DNA of 64,000 nucleotides from contig UQBS01000005.1 in the NCBI GenBank assembly GCA_900539345.1, positions 610 to 64,609 on the forward strand, written 5' to 3'. Below the pieces are notes generated by a model, which saw only the letters and a list, made by a program, of their open reading frames with translations, had not been told where the DNA came from and did no database searches. The stretch's first letter is position 1. Every line of letters begins with the position of its first letter. Position numbers and translations under genes: made by a program. The stretch comes from an uncultured Coriobacteriaceae bacterium (lineage in GTDB: Bacteria > Actinomycetota > Coriobacteriia > Coriobacteriales > UMGS124). Shown piece after piece: positions 190 to 64,000 of this stretch.

Positions 190-2397
190 GTGACTATAAT
201 GACCAGCGCAAAATTTACTTGGATTAGCTTTTATAAAGAGTTATCTGACAAGCTGCTGACCTATCGAGATAGGCGCGACGATCTGATAAACAAGCTAGCA
301 ACTGTCTATGAATCGATCGGGATGAGCCTCCCTAAGCTTGAGGCAGATGAGCTCCAAGACATCGATCCGTTCACCGTCTTCGGCCTCTTCAACAAGGGCA
401 TCACAGACGCAAACCGGAAGAAGATCGTCGCCGGAATCGCCGAGGTGTTCGACATTGGGGCAGATCAGCCCACGGACTTCGAGGGCATCCCCGTGCTCAA
501 CAACCTCAACGCGACCTTCTATGCCTTCGCCAACGACGAACGTCGCGGCGAGCACGACATCGATAACCTCTGGCACGTGTTCGAGGCCGAGCTTGTACTA
601 GCTGCAGACGATAGCGAAGAGAACCGCAAGGCATTCGTCGATGCATTCGATGCCGCCGTCATCCAGTTTTCGCTTGGCTGGAAGCTCACCATGGGCCTCT
701 ACTGGGCAAGGCCCTACAACTTCATCAGCCTGGACAAGCGCAACCGCTGGTTCATGGCCGACGCGGCAAAGGCTGGCTCCACCATTGCCGGCATAGTGCC
801 AAAGGAGAAGGACTCGGCGATTCACGACGGAGAGCGCTATCTCGACGGAGAGCGCTATCTCGCTATTTGCGATGCTGTCAAATCAGAGTTCGGAAGCAAC
901 GAATGCCCGTACGCAGACTTCCCCTCGCTGACGGCTACCGCCTTCGTGGAGTCTGAGCGCGTCAACCGTGAGAGAAAGGTCGCCGAGAAGGCTGCAGCCG
1001 AAAAGGCGGAAGAAAATTCCCTTGGAGACGAGGGGGTCAAGACCACACATTACTGGACTTACTCCCCGGGAGACGGTGCCGCGAGGTGGGATGACTTCTA
1101 CGCACGTGGCGTAATGGGCGTCGGCTGGAGCAAGCTCGGCAACGTCGAGAAATACGCCAGCAAGGAAGACATCCGCAAGAACCTGCGCACCCTGTACAGT
1201 AGCAAGTACTCGCAGAAGAACTCCGCACTCGCGCTCTGGCAGTTCTCGCGCGAAATCAAGCCGGGCGACGTTGTCTTTGCTAAGCGGGGCCGCAGCGTGA
1301 TTATTGGTCGCGGCATCGTTGAGGGGGATTACCAATTCGACGAAAATGGCGACTCCTATCCGAACATCCGCAGGGTACGCTGGACGAGCAGAGGAGAGTG
1401 GCACACGGAAGACCTCCTCGCCGTGAAGACCCTGACGGACATCACCGCCTATCCCGACCTCGTTGAGAAGCTCAACTCGTTCTTCGAGGACGAGGGCGGC
1501 GAAATCGAGGAAGACACGGAGGAGGTTGAATACCCGGCGTACACGTCCGAGGACTTCCTCTCGGAGGTCTACATGGACGGCGAGCACTACAGGGCCCTCG
1601 TCAACGCCCTGCGCGCGAAGAAGAACATCATCCTGCAGGGTGCCCCAGGCGTGGGCAAGACCTTCGCCGCAAAGCGCCTGGCCTACTCCATGATGGGCGT
1701 GAAGGACGCCGGGCGTGTGATGATGGTGCAGTTCCACCAGAGCTACAGCTACGAGGACTTCATAGAGGGGTTCCGCCCGAACGCGCAGGGCTTCGACCTC
1801 GAGAAGGGCGCGTTCTACAACTTCTGCAAGAATGCGAAGGACGATTCTGACAACGACTACTTCTTCATCATCGACGAAATCAACCGTGGCAACCTCTCGA
1901 AGATCTTCGGCGAGCTGTTCATGCTCATCGAGAACGACAAGCGCGGGCCCAGGAACACGCTGCAGCTCCTCTACTCGCACGAGCTGTTCTACGTCCCGAG
2001 CAACGTATACCTCATTGGTATGATGAACACAGCGGACCGCTCGCTCGCCATGCTCGACTACGCCCTGCGCCGCCGCTTCGCGTTCTTCGACCTCCGTCCC
2101 GCCTTCGACACGGAGAGCTTCATCGCCTATCAGGAGGGACTTGCCAGCGAGAAGTTCGATAGGCTCATCTCCTGCGTCGTGAAGCTGAACGAGGCGATCG
2201 CGTCCGACGAGTCGCTGGGAGACGGCTTCTGCATCGGCCATAGCTACTTCTGCCGCATGTCCCCGGACGATGTGACGGACGATAAGCTCTCGGCAATCGT
2301 CAACTACGAGCTCGTGCCGATGTTGCGCGAGTACTGGTTCGACGAGCCCACCAAGGTCGACGAGTGGGCCGGCAAGTTGCGCAGGTCAATCCGGTGA
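190..2397 (+). CDS. mcrB: McrB-like AAA+ GTPase subunit of a type IV (modification-dependent) restriction system, with a long N-terminal extension
   Basis: The C-terminal third carries McrB hallmarks: Walker A ILQGAPGVGKTF, FHQSYSYEDFIEGFRP, FFIIDEINRGNLSKIFGELF, MMNTADRSLAMLDYALRRRF. Start is GTG 190 or ATG 199. Residues about 285-410 look like a small Trp-rich beta-barrel (PUA/EVE-like); this is an inference. Confidence 0.85.
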   Translation: MTIMTSAKFTWISFYKELSDKLLTYRDRRDDLINKLATVYESIGMSLPKLEADELQDIDPFTVFGLFNKGITDANRKKIVAGIAEVFDIGADQPTDFEGIPVLNNLNATFYAFANDERRGEHDIDNLWHVFEAELVLAADDSEENRKAFVDAFDAAVIQFSLGWKLTMGLYWARPYNFISLDKRNRWFMADAAKAGSTIAGIVPKEKDSAIHDGERYLDGERYLAICDAVKSEFGSNECPYADFPSLTATAFVESERVNRERKVAEKAAAEKAEENSLGDEGVKTTHYWTYSPGDGAARWDDFYARGVMGVGWSKLGNVEKYASKEDIRKNLRTLYSSKYSQKNSALALWQFSREIKPGDVVFAKRGRSVIIGRGIVEGDYQFDENGDSYPNIRRVRWTSRGEWHTEDLLAVKTLTDITAYPDLVEKLNSFFEDEGGEIEEDTEEVEYPAYTSEDFLSEVYMDGEHYRALVNALRAKKNIILQGAPGVGKTFAAKRLAYSMMGVKDAGRVMMVQFHQSYSYEDFIEGFRPNAQGFDLEKGAFYNFCKNAKDDSDNDYFFIIDEINRGNLSKIFGELFMLIENDKRGPRNTLQLLYSHELFYVPSNVYLIGMMNTADRSLAMLDYALRRRFAFFDLRPAFDTESFIAYQEGLASEKFDRLISCVVKLNEAIASDESLGDGFCIGHSYFCRMSPDDVTDDKLSAIVNYELVPMLREYWFDEPTKVDEWAGKLRRSIR

Positions 2398-3479
2398 TCC
2401 GGATACAGAACATCTACCACATGCTCGCCTATGCGTTCCAGACGCTGCAAGGGCAGGGCTACCGCGACATCACAGCCGAGGAGTTCGACAACACCGCCGA
2501 CCTCCTCGCCGAGATACTGTCACGGGGCGTGAGCCTGCAGCTCAAGCGCGGTCTTGGCCGAGAGTACGTCGACCGCAAGGATATGCTCTCCTCACCGAGG
2601 GGCAAGATTGAGCTGTCCGAGTCCTTGAAGACGCGCTCAATTCTGCGCAGGCAGCTGGTTTGCAGCTACGACGAGTTCAGCACGGACACGCGCATGAACC
2701 GCATCCTCAAGGCGACGATCATGCTCTTGATTCGCTCGGACATCGACAAGGCGCGCAGGAAGGCACTTAGACGGCTGCTTCCGTACTTCGTGGACGTGGA
2801 AGACGTGAACCTTTCGGGCGAAGACTGGCACATGCGCTTCGACCGGAACAACCAGACTTATCGCATGCTCATGAACGTATGCTGGCTGGTCGTGAAGGGC
2901 CTTCTCCAGACGCGGGAAAGCGGGAGTCTCCGCATGATGGACTTCCTCGACGAGCAGCGAATGAGCCACCTGTACGAGAAGTTCATCCTCGAGTACTACA
3001 GACGTGAGCACCCAGGGCTTTCCGCGGGGGCGCCGTACATCAGCTGGGCACTCGACGACGGCTTCGGCGATATGCTCCCCGCCATGCACACCGACATAAC
3101 GCTCACATGGGGCAGGACCGTCCTCATCATCGACGCAAAGTACTACAGTCACACGACGCAGCAGCAATTCGACAAGCAAAGCGTCCACTCCGGCAACCTG
3201 TACCAGATCTTCACCTACGTGAAGAACAAGGAAGCGGAGCTCGCCAGCACTCACGAACAGCATAGCGTGTCGGGCATGCTGCTCTACGCCAAGACCGACG
3301 AAGACGTGCAGCCTGATGGTGTGTATCAGATGAGCGGTAACCAGATAAGCGTGAGGACATTGGACCTGAACCAGCCCTTCGAGACAATACGTTCGCAGCT
3401 CGACGGTATTGCTGAAGCTCATTTCTCTATAGCAATGGGCGCGACTTCGGAAGACGCCGCGCCCATTGGCAAACATTAA
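2394..3479 (+). CDS. mcrC: McrC-like nuclease subunit (PD-(D/E)xK)
   Basis: Lies directly downstream of mcrB. GTG 2394 overlaps the mcrB TGA (GTGA coupling). Nuclease-like motif TDITLTWGRTVLIIDAKYY. Size and position are typical of McrC. The ORF track starts it at 2364, but that start overlaps mcrB by 34 nt. Confidence 0.8.
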   Translation: MIRIQNIYHMLAYAFQTLQGQGYRDITAEEFDNTADLLAEILSRGVSLQLKRGLGREYVDRKDMLSSPRGKIELSESLKTRSILRRQLVCSYDEFSTDTRMNRILKATIMLLIRSDIDKARRKALRRLLPYFVDVEDVNLSGEDWHMRFDRNNQTYRMLMNVCWLVVKGLLQTRESGSLRMMDFLDEQRMSHLYEKFILEYYRREHPGLSAGAPYISWALDDGFGDMLPAMHTDITLTWGRTVLIIDAKYYSHTTQQQFDKQSVHSGNLYQIFTYVKNKEAELASTHEQHSVSGMLLYAKTDEDVQPDGVYQMSGNQISVRTLDLNQPFETIRSQLDGIAEAHFSIAMGATSEDAAPIGKH

Positions 3480-55460: not shown

Positions 55461-55919
55461 CTACTCGGTTTCTGCGGCCATATCAGCCGGGACGCCGGAT
55501 AGGTCCACCTCGGCACTCTGCTCAGGATAGGTCATGCCGTAGACCTGCGTCGCAATCGACCAGACGCGATCCTTGTCGCTGTAGATCGAGTTCTGCACCT
55601 CAAGTTCGGAGGCGCTGTAGCGCGCTGCCTCAAGCTGAGTGTCGAGGTCGGTGTTCTGGGAAAGGTAGCCAAACGTCGCTGCAACAAGAAAAACCTTGAC
55701 AAGGCCCGTAAGCAGCACGGTAGCAAGAAGAGCACCGACGCACTTAGCAACAGTGATAACAACAGGCGACAGCGGCGTTGTGGCATGCGGGGAGTTTCCA
55801 CCCTCAACGACGTTCCAATCGCGGCGCACACGCTCGTGCTGTGGCGCGGTCTGCTCAGGCATAGCATAGGCATGCATATCGTAAGCTGTGTTGTCGTCGT
55901 ATCGTGCCAACCCTGTCAC
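55461..55919 (-). CDS. ftsL: FtsL-like septal membrane protein
   Basis: Single TM helix (VVITVAKCVGALLATVLLTGLV) followed by a short coiled-coil. Conserved position between rsmH and ftsI. Start uncertain (GTG 55919, TTG 55910 or ATG 55877). Confidence 0.6.
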   Translation of the reverse strand: MTGLARYDDNTAYDMHAYAMPEQTAPQHERVRRDWNVVEGGNSPHATTPLSPVVITVAKCVGALLATVLLTGLVKVFLVAATFGYLSQNTDLDTQLEAARYSASELEVQNSIYSDKDRVWSIATQVYGMTYPEQSAEVDLSGVPADMAAETE

Positions 55920-55967
55920 CTCCTCATGTCATCGCGTGCCGTCGTGTGCGGCACAGGGGTAGTGATT

Positions 55968-56957
55968 TTAGACCAATTTCACCGCAGATCGGACCTTAGC
56001 AGAGCGAGAGCGCGGATTACGTACAATCTCTTCTTCACTGGGAACGCGAGGCTTGCGTTCTTGGAGTTTCAGTACAGATTTGCAGCCGCACACGCACACC
56101 GGAAGGCCGGGCGGACACGTACACCTCTCCGTGAAGGACTTGAACGTCTCCTTCACGATGCGGTCCTCAAGCGAGTGGTAACTGATGACGCAGATGCGAC
56201 CACCCGGGTTGAGCCAACGTACGGCCGCGTCCAAGCCGGACTTGAGCGCATCCATCTCGTGGTTGACCTCGATACGGATGGCCTGGAACGTCTTGCGCGC
56301 CGGATGATGGCCGCCGCTTCGACGCTCGGCCGCCGGGATACCCTCTTTGATGACGTCAACCAGCTGCAGCGTCGTCTCGATCGGGGCACTCGCCCTGCGG
56401 GCGACGATACGGGATGCAATGCGGGAAGCCCACTTTTCTTCGCCGTAGACGCGAAGGATGCGAGCCAGATCAGCCTCGGTGTAATGGTTCACGACCTCAT
56501 AGGCGGTCAGCGTGTTGTTGGCCGTGTCCATGCGCATATCAAGCGGGGCGTCCTCGTGATAGGAGAAGCCGCGCTCGGGAATGTCGAGCTGGGGCGAGCT
56601 CACACCCAGGTCGAACAGGAAGCAATCGACACCGGGGACCTCGGCCTGCTGCAGCAGGCGATCAAGCTCGGAGAAGTTGCCCTTGAGCTGCAAAGACCTC
56701 AGCTCGGGCAGCTGCTCGCGAATGCGCGCACCAGCATTTGCGAGGGCGAGGTCGTCCTGGTCGACGCCGATGAGCATGCCCGTGGGGCCGCACAGCTTGC
56801 CCATCTCAAGGGAATGGCCGGCACCGCCGAGCGTGCAGTCGCACACGACGTCGCCATCGGCGGGGCGCAGCGTCTCGAGAACCTCGTCAAGCATGACGGG
56901 AATGTGATGAAATTCAACCTGAGGGGCTTCGGCCCCGGCGAGTTCCTGTGTGGTCAC
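55968..56957 (-). CDS. rsmH: 16S rRNA (cytosine1402-N4)-methyltransferase
   Basis: HIPVMLDEVL, DCTLGGAGHS, DLGVSSPQLD, ISYHSLEDRIVK. Confidence 0.95.
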   Translation of the reverse strand: MTTQELAGAEAPQVEFHHIPVMLDEVLETLRPADGDVVCDCTLGGAGHSLEMGKLCGPTGMLIGVDQDDLALANAGARIREQLPELRSLQLKGNFSELDRLLQQAEVPGVDCFLFDLGVSSPQLDIPERGFSYHEDAPLDMRMDTANNTLTAYEVVNHYTEADLARILRVYGEEKWASRIASRIVARRASAPIETTLQLVDVIKEGIPAAERRSGGHHPARKTFQAIRIEVNHEMDALKSGLDAAVRWLNPGGRICVISYHSLEDRIVKETFKSFTERCTCPPGLPVCVCGCKSVLKLQERKPRVPSEEEIVRNPRSRSAKVRSAVKLV

Positions 56958-56960
56958 CTG

Positions 56961-57401
56961 CTACTCCTCCAAAAAATCCAGGGCGAGCAGGTCTTCCTCC
57001 GCACGCCGATAGGCAGCTCCGTCGCAGACCTCGAGATGGTCCCCGCCGCCCACGATGGCGACGTCCTTGTCGAGGCCCACGATTTGGCGCAACCTGCCCG
57101 GGATGCCGATGCGACCGGCCGAGTCAATGGCGGTCTCTTCGGTAAATGCGAGCAGGCGCGTGCGAAGCTGCACGTCGCGCGTGGAGCGCGGGTTGAAGCC
57201 CTCGCTGAAGAACGACTTGACCCATGCGTCGTAGGCCTCGGGCGCAAAGACGTAGACCGCCTTTTTGTCCAGAGACAGGACGCACTTCACAATCTCAGGC
57301 AGATAGCGGCGCGCCTTGGCGGGAAGCGAGACACGGCCCTTTGCGTCGAGCGTGTGCTCGGCAACGCCGGTAAAGCACGTATCTTGTGCCTCGATGTCCA
57401 T
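56961..57401 (-). CDS. mraZ: transcriptional regulator MraZ
   Basis: FTGVAEHTLDAKGRVSLPAK and a second SpoVT/AbrB-like repeat DSAGRIGIPGRL. 146 aa. Confidence 0.95.
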   Translation of the reverse strand: MDIEAQDTCFTGVAEHTLDAKGRVSLPAKARRYLPEIVKCVLSLDKKAVYVFAPEAYDAWVKSFFSEGFNPRSTRDVQLRTRLLAFTEETAIDSAGRIGIPGRLRQIVGLDKDVAIVGGGDHLEVCDGAAYRRAEEDLLALDFLEE

Positions 57402-57480
57402 GTGCGCCTCCTCTCAGCCTGATTTTGAGCCGAATCGTCCAACTTGACTGTCAGGATACACCATAGCGGAGTGCTTTTAT

Positions 57481-57540: not shown

Positions 57541-57698
57541 AACGCAGCGGACGAGGTTCCGCATCACTCTAAAACGCGGGTTCTCGTCCGCAAGGCGCCG
57601 GGAGGCGATGCGTACTGGACGTACGTGAGCCTCCCGGCACGGAGCGCCCTTTGCGACGAGTCCCGTGGAGAACGCAGCGGACGAGGTTCCGCAACTCC
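57541..57698 (-). repeat. nested-palindrome repeat element, array A (one full 117-nt hairpin unit plus a half unit)
   Basis: Half arm at 57541-57562, linker ATCACTCTAAAAC, and a full hairpin at 57576-57692 (outer stem CTCGTCCGC/GCGGACGAG, inner stem CCGGGAGGC/GCCTCCCGG). Same family as 62031-62458. Ends ...GGTTCCGCAACTCC immediately before the xerD stop codon. Confidence 0.85.
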
Positions 57699-58652
57699 CT
57701 ACAGGTGGGCGCGGGGGTGGGCCGTAAAGTATTCCTCGCGTATATGTTCCCTATCCACATGTGTGTAAATCTGCGTCGTGGATATGTCGGCATGGCCGAG
57801 GATCTCTTGGAGAACGCGCAGGTCAGCGCCACCGGCAAGCATGTGGCTTGCAAAGGCGTGGCGAAGCACGTGGGGATGCAGGCCCGCGATGCCCACGGCG
57901 GCTCCGCAACGCTCCACCACATTGAAGATGCTCTGTCGGCTGATGCGCCCACCGCGAGCGTTGAGGAAGACCGCGCGGGGGTCTTGAGATGCCGCCGACG
58001 ACGTCAGATGCAAGAAAGGTCGGCCCTCATCGAGATACGTCCGCAGCGCAACAAGCGCGCTGCCCACGATGGGCACAAGCCTCTCCTTGCTGCCCTTGCC
58101 AAAGATACGCAGGAATCCGGCGTCGAGATAGCAGGCGGAAAGGTCGAGACCTGCAAGCTCGCTCACACGCAGGCCGCAGCCGTAGAGCACCTCGAGCATC
58201 GTCTTGTCGCGCATGCCGATGGGCGTTTCAGGAAACGGCTGGTCAAGCAACTCGAAAGCCTTCTCCACCGAGATGGTCTCAGGCAGGCGCTGGGGCTTGC
58301 GGGGGGCTTTCACTTCAGAAGTAGGAAGCTTTTCCGCAAGCCCGTCGACATAGAGGAACTTATGCAGGCCCTTGATGGCCGAGACAGCCCTCTGGATGCT
58401 CGTAGCGGCCTTGCCCTCGTCGTGTAGGTGGGCCTGGTACGCTTCCACAAGACCGCGTTCCACCTGGTCGGGAGCGTTGACATTGTGCTCGTCTGCCAGC
58501 CATGCGACCCAGGCGGTCAGGTCACGCCTGTAGGCATCCACCGTGTTCTTGGAAGAGCCCTTCTCAACGCGCAGGTAATCGATATAGTCGGCCAAGCCCG
58601 CCTCAAGGGCGGACCTGGCCTGATTCGCTCTGTCAGTCTTCGGCGCCGTCAC
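57699..58652 (-). CDS. xerD: tyrosine site-specific recombinase XerD (XerC/XerD family)
   Basis: N-terminal SAM-like domain, then ...RDKTMLEVLYGCGLRVSEL, HVLRHAFASHML, LGHADISTTQIYTHV (catalytic Tyr). The pyrG-xerD linkage is as in other Actinobacteria. GTG start. Confidence 0.85.
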   Translation of the reverse strand: MTAPKTDRANQARSALEAGLADYIDYLRVEKGSSKNTVDAYRRDLTAWVAWLADEHNVNAPDQVERGLVEAYQAHLHDEGKAATSIQRAVSAIKGLHKFLYVDGLAEKLPTSEVKAPRKPQRLPETISVEKAFELLDQPFPETPIGMRDKTMLEVLYGCGLRVSELAGLDLSACYLDAGFLRIFGKGSKERLVPIVGSALVALRTYLDEGRPFLHLTSSAASQDPRAVFLNARGGRISRQSIFNVVERCGAAVGIAGLHPHVLRHAFASHMLAGGADLRVLQEILGHADISTTQIYTHVDREHIREEYFTAHPRAHL

Positions 58653-60443: not shown

Positions 60444-61898
60444 CTACTCGCCCTTGCCTTCGACCAAGTCGATAAGCTCCTGGTGAGAGTGGATGTCGAG
60501 CTTGGCATAGATATGCTTGACGTGGGCCTTGACTGTATTGCGCGAAACGCTTAGACGCTCTTCGATGTACTCGCGGTTGCGACCGCGTGCAAGCATCTCG
60601 AACACCTCGGCCTCGCGGGGCGTGAGCTGATAGGCGGCCGCCACCTGGGCGCAACGCTCAGCGAAAACCTCATCGGCAGAGACGTGGATCTCGATGTCGG
60701 GCTCGGGAGGCACAACGCCCTCGATCGTGACACGCAGCGAAAACCCGCGCAGGCCAAAGAGAATGTAGGCGACAAGAACCAGCAGCATGAAGGCGACAAA
60801 GAAAGCGAGCTGCTGGTGGCCGGCCGCAACCTCGATGCGGTTTGCCGTGGTGCCCAGAAGGGCGCCCAACGTCGTTGCCAGGCCTGACATGCCCTGACCC
60901 CATCCCACGATGGACAGGGCGGCCAGAGGGTTGCGGGCAGCGAGGGCGACAAGCGTGAAATTGAGGGCGATGCCGAACACGCAGGTACCAACCGTAAGAA
61001 GGCCGTTCGCCAGCATGACACTGCTCGAACCGCCCACCATGACAAGCAAAAAGCCCGCAGTGAGGGCAAGAAGCGACACGTTGACGATCTCGTCGCCGAT
61101 GAATCGTCCGCCCAGCGCGAGCGTCACCAACACGAGCACGACCGCGAACGCAAGGCCAAGGTTGCCAAAAGACGGCACGCCGGCCACCTCGCCGAAGCGC
61201 AGCGCAAAGCCGAACGCAACCTGTACGAGAATGATGCAGATATAGAGATTGCTCGTAAGCGGCACATACGAGGCAGGGCGCGTGACGGAAAGCTCGGCGG
61301 CGGCAGGACCGGCGGCGATCTCGTCGGCAAGGGCGCCGGCGCGGCGATGGGCGCACACCAGGCACACGGGGATGAGAACCACAAGCAACACGGCAGAAAC
61401 CTGTTGAGGAAGAGCGACGCGCACAAGCAGGTCGAACAGCTGCGCAAACACGGCACCCATCGTAATGGCGACGACTGCCTGGGGCGCAGGCAGCGACACA
61501 GCAGCCAGGTTCGAACTGATGGAGGTCCATCCGCGGCTTGTCACAAGCAGACATGCGCCCGGCACCAGCAGAGCAGGGACACGCAAGCCCAGTCCCGCAA
61601 GCACGCCAACGACGCCAAGCGCCCAGATGACCAACATCGAGAAAAAGAGGCCCCTGCCGCTCAAAAGCGCAGGCCAGACAAGCGAGATAAGGCCGAGCGC
61701 AATGGAGACGAGCGCGCTGCACGTGATCGAGATATCGCGCGCGTAGGTAAACACGCCATCGAACAGGGGAAAGAGCGACCGGTTCATGAGCTGCACGGTA
61801 AGGCCCGCCATGCCCATCGCGCAACAGACAAGCCAGAACTCGCGACTGGCAAACGTCACCCGGCAAAACTCGCGCACCTGTCGTAGTGCCTGTGCCAC
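60444..61898 (-). CDS. membrane-anchored LuxR-family transcriptional regulator (polytopic N-terminal domain plus C-terminal HTH)
   Basis: About 400 aa with roughly 10-12 hydrophobic helices, then LTPREAEVFEMLARGRNREYIEERLSVSRNTVKAHVKHIYAKLDIHSHQEL (LuxR/GerE HTH). GTG start after AAGGGGG. Confidence 0.85.
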   Translation of the reverse strand: MAQALRQVREFCRVTFASREFWLVCCAMGMAGLTVQLMNRSLFPLFDGVFTYARDISITCSALVSIALGLISLVWPALLSGRGLFFSMLVIWALGVVGVLAGLGLRVPALLVPGACLLVTSRGWTSISSNLAAVSLPAPQAVVAITMGAVFAQLFDLLVRVALPQQVSAVLLVVLIPVCLVCAHRRAGALADEIAAGPAAAELSVTRPASYVPLTSNLYICIILVQVAFGFALRFGEVAGVPSFGNLGLAFAVVLVLVTLALGGRFIGDEIVNVSLLALTAGFLLVMVGGSSSVMLANGLLTVGTCVFGIALNFTLVALAARNPLAALSIVGWGQGMSGLATTLGALLGTTANRIEVAAGHQQLAFFVAFMLLVLVAYILFGLRGFSLRVTIEGVVPPEPDIEIHVSADEVFAERCAQVAAAYQLTPREAEVFEMLARGRNREYIEERLSVSRNTVKAHVKHIYAKLDIHSHQELIDLVEGKGE

Positions 61899-62030
61899 CG
61901 TCCCGCCCCCTTCGCGCGCAAACCGCTCTTACACCCGCGATTCTACACGCGAAAGGGGCAGCCCTCAGCCCATGGCCGAAGACTGCCCCTCAAACACTCA
62001 AACTACCCTCTAACCCCACAGCCGGGGCCC

Positions 62031-62458
62031 ACGCACAGCGCCGCACGCGAGGTTCCGCAACTCCTCAAAAGCGGGTTCTCGTCCGCAAGGCGTCGGGAGG
62101 CGATGCGTACTAGGTCTGGAGAACGCAGCAGACGAGGTTCCGCATCCCTCTAAAAGCGGGTTCTGATGCGCAAGGCGCGCGATGCCGACGTGCGCGGTGC
62201 GGGCCTTTGGCCTACTGGAGTACTCTAGGCCCTGCGGAACGCAGCGCATCAGGTCCGCATCCCACTAAAACGCAGGTTCTCACGCGCAAGGCGCGCGGAG
62301 TCGATGTGTACTGGAGTACATGAGACTCCGCGGAACGCGGCGCGTGAGGTTCCGCAGCTCCTCAAAAAGCGGGTTCTGATGCGCAAGGCGCGCAGGGCCG
62401 ACGTGTACTGGAGTACTCTAGGCCCTGCGGAACGCAGCGCATCAGGTTCCGCAACTCC
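62031..62458 (-). repeat. nested-palindrome repeat element, array B (four tandem hairpin units plus a half unit)
   Basis: Hairpins at 62071-62143, 62156-62258, 62271-62355 and 62369-62452, separated by 12-13-nt linkers (ATCCCTCTAAAA, ATCCCACTAAAA, AGCTCCTCAAAAA). On the minus strand each hairpin is followed by TTTT(T). Ends ...GGTTCCGCAACTCC immediately before the reductase stop codon. Confidence 0.9.
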
Positions 62459-64000
62459 CTAGTTGGCGAACTCCTGGCCAAGGATGTAGGCCTCGGTGGT
62501 AGTACGCCCGCACGCAAGGCCGGTGAACAGGTTGGGGTAGCTCACGCAGAAGAAGCCGCCCGAGCAGTCACCGATGGCGTAGAGGCCCTCGATGGGGTTG
62601 TTGTCCTGGTCGAGAACCTGCATGTGCGTGTTGATGAGCAGGCCGTCGAACGTGGCGAGGTGCCAGGCGCCGGTGCGCACGCCATAGAAAGGCGGCGTGT
62701 CGAGCTTCGTGAGGCGGTAGGCCTCCTTGTAGTAGTCGGGGTCGGCGCCCTCGTCGCAGTAGCCGTTGTACTTCTCAACCGTGGCCGCAAGGTTCTCAGC
62801 GGGGATGTTGAGCTTCTCGGCAAGCTCCTCGATGGTGTCGGCCTGCTGGATGTAGCCGTCCTCGATAAGCTTGGCGTTCATGTTGTTCCACACCACGTCA
62901 AACGGGATGTTGTTCTGGGCACCGTTGTCGAAGGGGAACAGACGACAGCAACCGACCTCATTGAGCTGCTCAGCCTTGGCCTTGGCGTCGGAGTCCCAGA
63001 TGTCGCAGTAGGTGTGGTAAGGCTGGCTCCACGTGGAGTGCAGCATGTAGTCGTAGGGACCGCTCTCGTTGCAGAAGCGCTCGCCGTTGAGGTTGACCTT
63101 GAGGAAGGGCTGCTCGCCGAACCAGAACCAACGGCCCACGACGCCATTGCCGGCAACCTCGTCGGGCATGACGCAGCAGCGGTTGAACAGGATCGAGGTG
63201 CCAATCGGGTCCTTGCGGGCACCGAGCCACATACCAGCCTTGATGCCGGAGCCGTCATCGGTGGAACCAGAGGTGCACAGGATGCGACCGTCGACGATCT
63301 CGGGCTGCAGGGCGCACATCATCTCGGAGTTCGTGGAGTAACCACCCGTGGCAAGTACGACGCCCTTGGAAGCATTGATGCGCACGTAGTGGCCATCGGT
63401 GGTGTCCTGGGCGATAGCGCCGGTCACGCGGCCGGACTCGTCCTGCTCGAGCTTGACCAGGGGGCAGCTCCAGCGCACCTCGGCACCGGCGTCGATGGCA
63501 GCCTGGCGCATGACCTTGGTGTAGGAATCGTCGTCGCCAGCGGCCTCGGTCTTCTGGGGGCTGTGGCCCGTGGCGTAGGCGCGGTCGCGACCCTCGCCGT
63601 CCTGGTTGCCGATGCCACCCTCGAACTCCATGACGAACTTGCCGGTAGCCTCGATGGTCTCGGTGATCCAGTCGATGACCTCGCCGGAGCGCTGAGCCCA
63701 CATCTTGATGAGGTCATAGTTGCAGAAGCCGTTGGCGTAGCGGACGATGTCCTCGACGGCGTCCTTCTCCTCAATCTTGAACTCGGGGAACTCCTCGAAG
63801 GAGGCCAGCTGGAGCTTGGAGTTCATGGCGCCGATGTCCTCGCGCATCTGCTGGCAGGTCTCCTCGGCGTCACGCTCGATGACGAGGGTCTTGCTGCCGT
63901 TCTGTGCGCAGGAAAGCGCGCAGGGCACACCGCCGGTGTTGAAGCCGCAGACAAGAACCTCGGTCTCGAGGGTCTCGGTGATGTCGGCCTCGGCAACCTC
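62459..64000 (-). CDS. FAD-dependent oxidoreductase of the fumarate-reductase/urocanate-reductase flavoprotein family (5' end outside the window)
   Basis: The reading frame stays open to nt 64000 (…EVLVCGFNTGGVPCALSCAQNGSKTLVIE = dinucleotide-binding start). VLATGGYSTNSEMM. C-terminal GLYAIGDCSGGFF, typical of FAD_binding_2 reductases. Confidence 0.85.
   Translation of the reverse strand, partial: EVAEADITETLETEVLVCGFNTGGVPCALSCAQNGSKTLVIERDAEETCQQMREDIGAMNSKLQLASFEEFPEFKIEEKDAVEDIVRYANGFCNYDLIKMWAQRSGEVIDWITETIEATGKFVMEFEGGIGNQDGEGRDRAYATGHSPQKTEAAGDDDSYTKVMRQAAIDAGAEVRWSCPLVKLEQDESGRVTGAIAQDTTDGHYVRINASKGVVLATGGYSTNSEMMCALQPEIVDGRILCTSGSTDDGSGIKAGMWLGARKDPIGTSILFNRCCVMPDEVAGNGVVGRWFWFGEQPFLKVNLNGERFCNESGPYDYMLHSTWSQPYHTYCDIWDSDAKAKAEQLNEVGCCRLFPFDNGAQNNIPFDVVWNNMNAKLIEDGYIQQADTIEELAEKLNIPAENLAATVEKYNGYCDEGADPDYYKEAYRLTKLDTPPFYGVRTGAWHLATFDGLLINTHMQVLDQDNNPIEGLYAIGDCSGGFFCVSYPNLFTGLACGRTTTEAYILGQEFAN

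Follow-up and report, generated by a model that had tools for sequence, protein, structure and literature searches.

The stretch analysed here (the window) comprises 64,000 nt of contig UQBS01000005.1 from an uncultured Coriobacteriaceae bacterium. Between a gene for a flavin adenine dinucleotide (FAD)-dependent reductase and a luxR gene it carries an array of long nested palindromes, whose units belong to an undescribed, lineage-specific repeat family of the same kind as the repetitive extragenic palindromes (REPs), bacterial interspersed mosaic elements (BIMEs) and TRIT repeats, with an architecture of its own. A sequence-only reading of this DNA had described four hairpin units and a partial unit at 62031-62461, and a fifth full unit at 57576-57692. 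The former are borne out by direct reading, by Tandem Repeats Finder (which detected the tandem repeat independently, with a period of 97 and 2.5 copies) and by a repeat search of the window that independently recovered the direct-repeat families and their arms. The latter is equally real; it lies behind the xer gene in what we call array A, and is preceded by a partial unit of its own at 57541-57562 (Table 1). Motif searches and a covariance model placed copies at no site in the 64 kb beyond these two loci.

Each unit is about 85 nt long and is built from a conserved scaffold around two variable boxes (outer, 5 nt; inner, 9 nt), both of them complementary to their partner boxes. Unit u4 lies closest to the reductase stop codon. 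At the other end of the array, u1 has indeed lost its apical right arm, as had been noticed, and locus comparison shows it to be orthologous to the single unit of two related loci, L026 and L100 (L numbers denote the loci of our comparison). The inner stem of u2 is a hybrid, with CGCGATGCC on the left and GGCCCTGCG on the right, and its 20-nt type I module is found in 13 more full-length units of 103-104 nt; likewise, the type III module of unit A recurs in units of 116-117 nt and 133-137 nt in other genomes. The extra sequence previously attributed to turnover in these two units is therefore present, but it consists of recurrent modules found in many copies elsewhere and is not random. Units u3, u4 and A fold into a nested hairpin on both strands (z -4.2 to -5.9; 0 of 200 shuffled sequences folded as well), and the predicted folding of u1 and u2 is poor. 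The run of U residues said to follow each hairpin on the minus strand was confirmed: every hairpin in the window is followed there by (G)TTTT(T).

Contrary to what had been supposed, the array leaves part of the interval between the reductase gene and luxR free. It accounts for about 430 nt of the 560-641 nt, and the remainder consists of a unique hairpin on the minus strand at 61953-61991 together with the upstream region of luxR. This hairpin, which is conserved in L026, L100 and L071, is probably the native terminator of the reductase gene. A small open reading frame (ORF) within the array (62010-62249, minus strand) was considered and set aside as not conserved, in view of the 96/97-nt period and the strain-variable unit content. 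The surroundings of array A are masked by another ORF of 545 aa (55785-57422, plus strand), a shadow ORF with no Pfam match, beneath which mraZ, rsmH (55968-56957) and ftsL (55461-55919) run on the minus strand; array A therefore lies between xer and the division/cell-wall (dcw) cluster. At the start of the window there is also a pair of AAA_5/McrBC-type restriction genes (190-3479, plus strand).

Table 1. Repeat units, linkers and adjoining genes at the two arrays of the window.
Feature	Position	Strand	Description	Score or basis
Distal truncated unit, reductase-luxR array	62031..62058	+	Right arm only (...GCGCCGCACGCGAGGTTCCGC)	Direct reading
u1	62071..62143	+	73 nt; outer CGTCC, inner TCGGGAGGC; apical right arm deleted	nhmmer score 52.8
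u2	62156..62258	+	103 nt; outer GATGC; type I module CGCGGTGCGGGCCTTTGGCC 5' of loop	
u3	62272..62355	+	Canonical, 84 nt; outer CACGC/GCGTG, inner CGCGGAGTC/GACTCCGCG	
u4	62369..62452	+	Canonical, 84 nt; outer GATGC/GCATC, inner CGCAGGGCC/GGCCCTGCG	110 bits
Linker and reductase stop codon	62453..62461	-	6-nt linker GGAGTT (minus strand; AACTCC on plus strand) and TAG stop (62459-62461)	
FAD-dependent reductase gene	62459 to beyond 64000	-	FAD_binding_2	
Distal truncated unit, array A	57541..57562	+	AACGCAGCGGACGAGGTTCCGC	
Unit A	57576..57692	+	117 nt; outer CGTCC, inner CCGGGAGGC; 32-nt type III side hairpin CACGGAGCGCCCTTTGCGACGAGTCCCGTGGA	
Linker and xer stop codon	57693..57701	-	6-nt linker GGAGTT and TAG stop (57699-57701)	
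xer	57699-58652	-	Xer-type tyrosine recombinase gene	
mraZ	56961-57401	-	Next gene downstream of xer	
luxR	60444-61817		ATG start as in public assemblies	
Unique hairpin	61953..61991	-	18-bp hairpin, then UUUCGCGUGU; distal to array, outside the repeat family	-41.1 kcal/mol, z -5.4

Distribution and anatomy of the repeat family

To define the family we scanned one genome per GTDB species with the pattern GGTTCTN5GCAAGGCGN{25,55}GAACGC, which matched at least 113 loci. Among the matches listed, those with the spacing of the family (64-65 nt) occur only in uncultured human-gut Coriobacteriales/Coriobacteriaceae metagenome-assembled genomes (MAGs; CAKUKJ, CAKUAI, CAKUFZ, JAHZGC, JAHZHK, CABQHM and USJP), including two mislabelled bins, and matches in other phyla have other spacings. 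The two bins, CAVEWV and CAVJGP, are labelled Acutalibacteraceae and Alistipes onderdonkii and their contigs are full of these repeats; since those contigs are 85-96% identical to Coriobacteriales loci, they are probably mis-binned. Further copies thus exist in related genomes, a check suggested by the sequence-only reading. The covariance model, made from 80 distinct units, gave no match in 433 kb of sequence at 57 loci of viruses and other phyla. Four matches in viral contigs were dismissed as chance, as they have the wrong spacing and none was recognised by the model. A hidden Markov model (HMM) of the 85-nt core, run over 61 loci totalling 476 kb, identified 150 units (129 of them full length) in 79 arrays from about nine assemblies of uncultured gut Coriobacteriales. 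Single units are the commonest class (34 arrays), followed by arrays of two (25), three (14) and four units (6); some arrays are cut by contig ends. Nothing similar was found in Rfam 15 with either gathering or permissive thresholds, the only hit in the window being a tRNA and the best matches in the array reaching 12-18 bits against gathering thresholds of 44-168. Nor did the searchable literature describe such a repeat in Coriobacteriia or Eggerthellaceae.

The scaffold consists of the blocks AAA-GCGGGTTCT, GCAAGGCG, G.NG.GTAC-loop-GTAC, GGAACGCNGC and AGGTTCCGC. Three of these form part of the search pattern, and these three are equally conserved in 42 full-length units that the pattern does not match, as is AGGTTCCGC, which was never required by it. 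The apical part had been described as a conserved loop; what is invariant is the GTAC/GTAC stem, whereas the loop itself falls into several classes (TGGA, TGGAC, TAGAT, ACATG, GCCTG and others). The variable boxes are occupied by discrete alleles common to different loci and species. Among the outer boxes GATGC (42), CGTCC (35), CACGC (18), GGCCT (16) and GGCGC (9) predominate, and among the inner boxes TCGGGAGGC (27), CACAGGTGC (14) and CCGGGAGGC (12), with others beside them in both cases. The outer box is perfectly matched in 98 of the 129 full-length units, where random pairing of alleles would give about 22% (an estimate from the allele counts), and 21 units (16%) are left/right hybrids with at least two mismatches.

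The strong covariation of the stems noted earlier is amply confirmed. Standard pairs make up 98.1% of 2640 pair cells, compared with 84.6% when partners are shuffled and 31-47% in slid controls; 17 of 33 pairs have changed on both sides, the inner helix is variable at all nine positions with up to five pair types, and the same fold was recovered de novo on both strands by RNAalifold. The interpretation of this signal as selection on structure stands only in part, in that a palindrome is clearly being maintained but selection on an RNA is not shown, given the strand symmetry and the hybrids. Half-compensated pairs at variable positions are strand-symmetric (about 70 G.T versus 65-78 A.C cells), and the covariation therefore indicates neither which strand folds nor whether the folded form is RNA or DNA. 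Moreover, the same small set of stem alleles turns up as discrete blocks at different loci, so that much of the covariation can be put down to the exchange of such blocks between copies. An attempt to read the folded strand from the half-compensated pairs thus failed; only three fixed wobbles favour a strand, and it is the antisense one. These three fixed G.T positions account for the better folding of the aligned strand (plus in the window, antisense to the mRNA) in 118 of the 129 units, with a mean of -54.3 versus -47.7 kcal/mol.

Up to three optional modules are present per unit, giving length classes of 84-85, 103-105, 116-117 and 133-137 nt. Type I is a 20-nt module (CGCGGTGCGGGCCTTTGGCC) inserted 5' of the loop, as in u2 of the window; type II is its reverse complement and lies 3' of the loop, so that the two form a flip/flop pair; and type III is a 32-nt side hairpin, as in unit A. 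In addition, mini-variants at L020:4425-4481, L034:2202-2269 and L069:5444-5646 retain only the core GCAAGGCG-stem-GTAC loop-stem-GGAACGC, have neither the GGTTC block nor the U run, and carry unrelated, locus-specific outer stems. One possibility is that they arose from an inner module inserting into the loops of pre-existing hairpins. Two further ideas about the units were not upheld. Neighbouring units are not significantly selected for unlike stems as a means of avoiding mispairing, either in the outer box (9 the same versus 11.3 expected) or in the inner box (1 the same versus 4.2 expected, P = 0.06), and GTAC does not behave as a restriction or methylation site, being neither avoided nor enriched (observed/expected 0.93). 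Separately, we observed that GATC and CTAG are under-represented in the window (observed/expected 0.57 and 0.54).

Position, polarity and turnover of the arrays

The arrays have a strikingly regular relationship to genes, which were called with a caller based on third-position GC content that reproduced the window genes; the mraZ-rsmH-ftsL region was taken from public gene calls. For 67 of 73 arrays, the neighbouring gene 3' of the array on the aligned strand is encoded on the opposite strand and terminates at the array, an orientation in which the mRNA strand carries the hairpin followed by U3-6. One of the six exceptions (L037) is a gene miscall. Three reversed arrays (L004, L030 and L048) lie behind a canonical native terminator, in the promoter/5' untranslated region (UTR) of the next gene, where the usual orientation would place a hairpin and U run before a gene and would be polar. 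A reversed unit in the divergent MAG JAHZGC (L034:5016-5100) appears to lie at or inside the end of a tsaB-like frame, and may be an intragenic insertion. In 58 of 62 arrays the base of the hairpin lies -1 to 12 nt from the stop codon, most often at 6 nt (23 of 62). The linker, nnnGtt, resembles the conserved 12-13 nt spacer (TTT-TAG-nGaGTT) that separates units within arrays, which are always head-to-tail and in one orientation.

The adjoining stop codons are TAG or TAA in 57 of 60 cases, against a genomic usage of 46% TAG, 38% TAA and 16% TGA (Fisher P = 0.02). We considered stop-codon type as a target signal and rejected it, as the excess merely mirrors the genomes' own usage. The window itself (62.6% GC) uses TAG 23, TAA 20 and TGA 6 times, TGA being unusually rare for a high-GC actinobacterial lineage.

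The arrays are also polar along their length. The gene-distal end is a truncated unit in 52 of 66 arrays, compared with 5% expected by chance, and the mean HMM score falls from 69.7 through 59.8 and 54.0 to 46.1 at positions 1 to 4 from the stop codon. The proximal unit outscores the distal one in 27 arrays and the reverse is true in 8 (P = 6e-5); 74% of units at position 1 are of canonical length and 0% at position 4.

Comparison of orthologous sites indicates that occupancy persists but content does not. Sites are occupied across species in which the coding flanks are 85-100% identical, truly empty sites were encountered only twice in about 60 comparisons, and there was no empty xer-mraZ site among 10 further genomes retrieved via the MraZ protein. 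Unit numbers do differ between strains at both window sites, a comparison that the sequence-only reading had suggested. At the reductase-luxR site, within flanks that are 98-100% identical, the window has a partial unit and four units, L026 a partial and one, L100 a partial and one unit with a type I module, and L071 a longer partial and one unit with other alleles; the additional units of the window are found between the shared old unit and the stop codon. At the xer-mraZ site, 15 genomes with xer genes 93-99.8% identical (the window, L114-L119, L126-L128 and L130-L134) carry eight or more haplotypes of the array, each with one or two units. These include five allele combinations, and the linker, spacer and distal partial unit vary too. 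For example, 2 of 954 xer positions distinguish L118 from the window, but the unit in L118 is a different one; L131 and L133 have the proximal unit in common and differ in spacer and partial unit; and L127 and L128 contain fresh tandem duplicates together with left/right hybrids. Furthermore, identical 85-nt units occur at non-orthologous loci in different assemblies (e.g. L060, L072, L086 and L100:1576). Most of these observations can be accounted for by tandem duplication within a locus, unequal crossing-over and the copying of units from one site to another. Separately, the LuxR and FAD-reductase segment upstream of pyrG (60444-64000) is itself variable between strains, and five of six conspecific contigs (L114-L119) have a P-II gene and a 152-aa gene in its place.

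Possible roles and origins of the arrays

The reading that we favour, at roughly even confidence, is that these lineage-specific, tandem, modular palindromic DNA repeats may serve as 3'-UTR hairpins or weak terminators. The array would be transcribed as the 3' UTR of the upstream gene, and each hairpin would act as a barrier at the 3' end and as a weak or partial intrinsic terminator. The first hairpin may in addition modulate translation termination, because its first 4-bp basal helix would fall, judging by the spacing, inside the footprint of the terminating ribosome. There is precedent for such a position. REPs of E. coli that lie within 15 nt of a stop codon are reported to stall ribosomes, in work cited in PMC12306157; and the 147 copies of TRIT in Mycobacterium are confined to a very narrow range of positions close to the stop codon, a binding factor having been suggested for them (PMC3152330). 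Array evolution would proceed through duplication in tandem, unequal crossing-over, and copying or conversion among copies at different sites, with the conserved scaffold blocks permitting whole nested boxes to be exchanged while complementarity stays intact, and with hybrids that break the hairpin being eliminated only slowly. In favour of a terminator-like or 3'-UTR role are the orientation of hairpin and U run with respect to the mRNA, its reversal where read-through would be needed, and the persistent occupation of the sites.

Several points weigh against this view. Transcription of the arrays is a prediction, as are the 3' ends and any influence on expression. Whereas an intrinsic terminator has a stem directly before a U tract of about 7-9 nt, the U runs here are only 3-6 nt long and the helix beside them is only 4-5 bp and is closed by a 3x3 internal loop; a scan for consensus terminators calls none of the units. 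Canonical hairpin and T-run terminators lie distal to 14 of 50 arrays, compared with 17% behind genes that have no array, so downstream terminators occur at background frequency and the arrays have not replaced native ones. With 16% of units being hybrids, the hairpin is evidently not strictly required. The better folding of the antisense strand is no less compatible with a DNA-level or antisense role than with a role in mRNA. Finally, the spacing from the stop codon and the orientation bias could reflect an insertion mechanism and not a function.

A rival explanation is that the repeats are purely selfish, non-autonomous mobile DNA with no host function, similar to miniature inverted-repeat transposable elements (MITEs), REPINs or PATEs. 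We regard this as fairly unlikely. A trans-acting enzyme, such as an HUH/Y1 single-strand transposase or another site-specific system, would insert units in a fixed orientation beside a short target supplied by stop codons, adding new copies on the stop-codon side, and the position and orientation of arrays would follow from the insertion mechanism together with the purging of harmful insertions. The presence of identical units at non-orthologous loci, the replacement, between strains whose flanks are 99.8% identical, of a complete unit and its linker as far as the stop codon, and the retention of native terminators downstream are all consistent with this. So too are the polar gradient, with the best units beside the stop codon and the truncated oldest unit distal, and the location of the window's additional units on the stop-codon side of the old one. 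MAG contigs also break at arrays, and L007, L048 and L053 have arrays at both contig ends. However, near-universal occupancy, with its two empty sites in about 60, is unlike the presence/absence pattern of typical MITEs, intergenic TAR trinucleotides elsewhere are unused, the TAG/TAA bias beside arrays is that of the genomes, and array expansion needs nothing beyond local tandem duplication, to judge from L127 and L128. Moreover, no enzyme presented itself. The transposase of the RAYT/IS200 type that the sequence-only reading had suggested as a partner was not found: tblastn with IS200, IS608 and RAYT queries produced nothing above noise in about 0.9 Mb (some 476 kb of it from genomes with the family), and this is a weak negative since the enzyme searches covered a fraction of any genome. 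Pfam searches of ORFs beside arrays (including three ORFs of L022) and of 36 of about 50 window genes returned housekeeping functions only and no transposase. Of the hallmarks of a MITE, terminal inverted repeats (TIRs) could be supplied by the outer stem, no related autonomous insertion sequence (IS) was seen as a parent, and no target-site duplication could be defined at the one usable filled/empty pair, L017/L004, whose members are only 87% identical.

The array had also been read as a series of efficient intrinsic terminators that insulates luxR from the reductase gene and is under selection at the RNA level. A hairpin followed by U3-6 in the sense of the mRNA at nearly every unit, the bias in orientation (67 of 73) and its reversal where read-through is needed would all suit this proposal, as would the precedent of TRIT. 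It is nevertheless improbable in our judgement. The short U runs, the weak basal helix split from the main stem by the 3x3 loop and the failure of the terminator scan to call the units count here too. A strong native hairpin already stands between the array and luxR, with a similar arrangement elsewhere, and mini-variants without a U run occur between co-directional genes (e.g. L020:4425). Given that single units are the commonest class, and that near-identical strains have either one or four units at the same site, seriality is not conserved. We attach equally little weight to the proposal that the units are recognition elements for an RNA- or DNA-binding protein, acting as a processing or ribosome-release signal or as a nucleoid- or gyrase-type site like BIMEs. 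The unpaired blocks (GGTTC...GGTTC, the AAG/A loop, the GAA bulge and the GTAC stem) would then be the functional parts and the variable stems a scaffold. These blocks are indeed far more conserved than the stems, also in units outside the search pattern, the mini-variants keep only the core GCAAGGCG-stem-GTAC loop-stem-GGAACGC in the midst of unrelated outer stems, and the authors of the TRIT study likewise proposed a binding factor. On the other hand, there is no candidate protein and no Rfam family that resembles the units, the genomic frequency of GTAC is unremarkable, and the conserved blocks could equally well be homology anchors for recombination.

Comparison with known systems places the family among REP-like elements, and its REP/BIME-like behaviour, proposed from the window alone, is supported. 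In common with the REPs and BIMEs of E. coli, it consists of high-copy extragenic imperfect palindromes in mosaic clusters with optional motifs, located in 3' UTRs and variable between strains, and many REPs lie within 15 nt of a stop codon (PMC12306157). Unlike REPs, which are 20-40 nt, the units here are nested hairpins of 84-137 nt with discrete, compensatory stem alleles, their arrays are head-to-tail where BIME units alternate in orientation, and no REP-associated tyrosine transposase (RAYT) was found. There is no consistent GTAG/CGTC-type tag either; the linker is nnnG(t/a)t, and the TAG/TAA is the gene's own stop codon at a variable distance of 1-12 nt. TRIT (Gardner et al., 2011; PMC3152330) is similarly actinobacterial and lineage-restricted, with a conserved palindrome, about 150 copies and a narrow position at the stop codon. 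Its position, however, at about -8, makes it overlap the ORF end; most copies are bidirectional and tandem arrays are not described, whereas the present family lies at about +6 and is oriented and arrayed. The comparison with TRIT, which is reported as restricted to Mycobacterium, is one of published description.

The REPINs of Pseudomonas are also imperfect hairpins of about 100 nt that are kept by compensatory change and form populations of related copies, but they comprise two inverted REPs served by a single-copy RAYT, whereas here the arrays are polar and stop-anchored and no RAYT was found. Mycobacterial interspersed repetitive units (MIRUs), which Supply and colleagues are said to have described in 1997, are reportedly repeated head-to-tail between genes, in units of 40-100 bp that share the orientation of the operon, abut stop codons and vary in number between strains. 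They differ in not being long palindromes and in containing small in-phase ORFs, whereas the 96-97 nt period of our arrays keeps no frame. The BOX elements of Streptococcus pneumoniae and the Correia and ERIC MITEs resemble the units in their modular build, their stable predicted structure and a proposed effect on neighbouring transcripts, and BOX further in that the mobilising enzyme is not known; they have no sequence relation to the family and are not stop-anchored, and Correia and ERIC have TIRs with a TA duplication. Integron attC sites show a similar primacy of structure over sequence, a location directly behind an ORF, a fixed orientation and polar arrays. We rejected this identification, as the R''/R' boxes (RYYYAAC...GTTRRRY) are absent, the ends read GCGGAACC...AGAACCCGC with GAACC direct and not inverted, and the neighbours are housekeeping genes (xer, the dcw cluster and pyrG), with no cassettes or ORFs between units. 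The tyrosine recombinase beside array A is Xer-type and sits in a conserved pyrG-xer-mraZ context. A CRISPR array was likewise discounted, there being no unique spacers and the units abutting through their conserved 12-13 nt spacer.

A more ambitious interpretation is that a dedicated site- and orientation-specific copying system adds units at the stop-codon end, and/or that the 6-nt spacing reflects a ribosome-coupled hairpin. We think this rather unlikely. If true, units would be older the farther they lie from the gene, much as in CRISPR or integron arrays, and the whole would amount to a stop-codon-anchored system of hairpin cassettes with interchangeable, mutually non-pairing stems.

Whatever their role, these arrays constitute an abundant unannotated repeat family in a prevalent human-gut lineage, in which they break MAG contigs; the flanking Xer and MraZ proteins are present in 755 and 1908 blocks of public assemblies, respectively. 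The repeat could serve as a strain marker akin to variable-number tandem repeats, and the roughly 10 outer and at least 20 inner stem alleles carried by a single scaffold form a natural hairpin library. For the discovery of non-coding RNAs the family offers a caution, in that massive 'covariation' can stem from block exchange in DNA palindromes and is strand-neutral here. It also extends to a third lineage, after REPs and TRIT, the puzzling rule that conserved hairpins are pinned within the ribosome footprint of the stop codon. Since 58 of 62 arrays conform, which is far cleaner than the situation in E. coli, the role of stop-proximal hairpins is directly testable in these bacteria.

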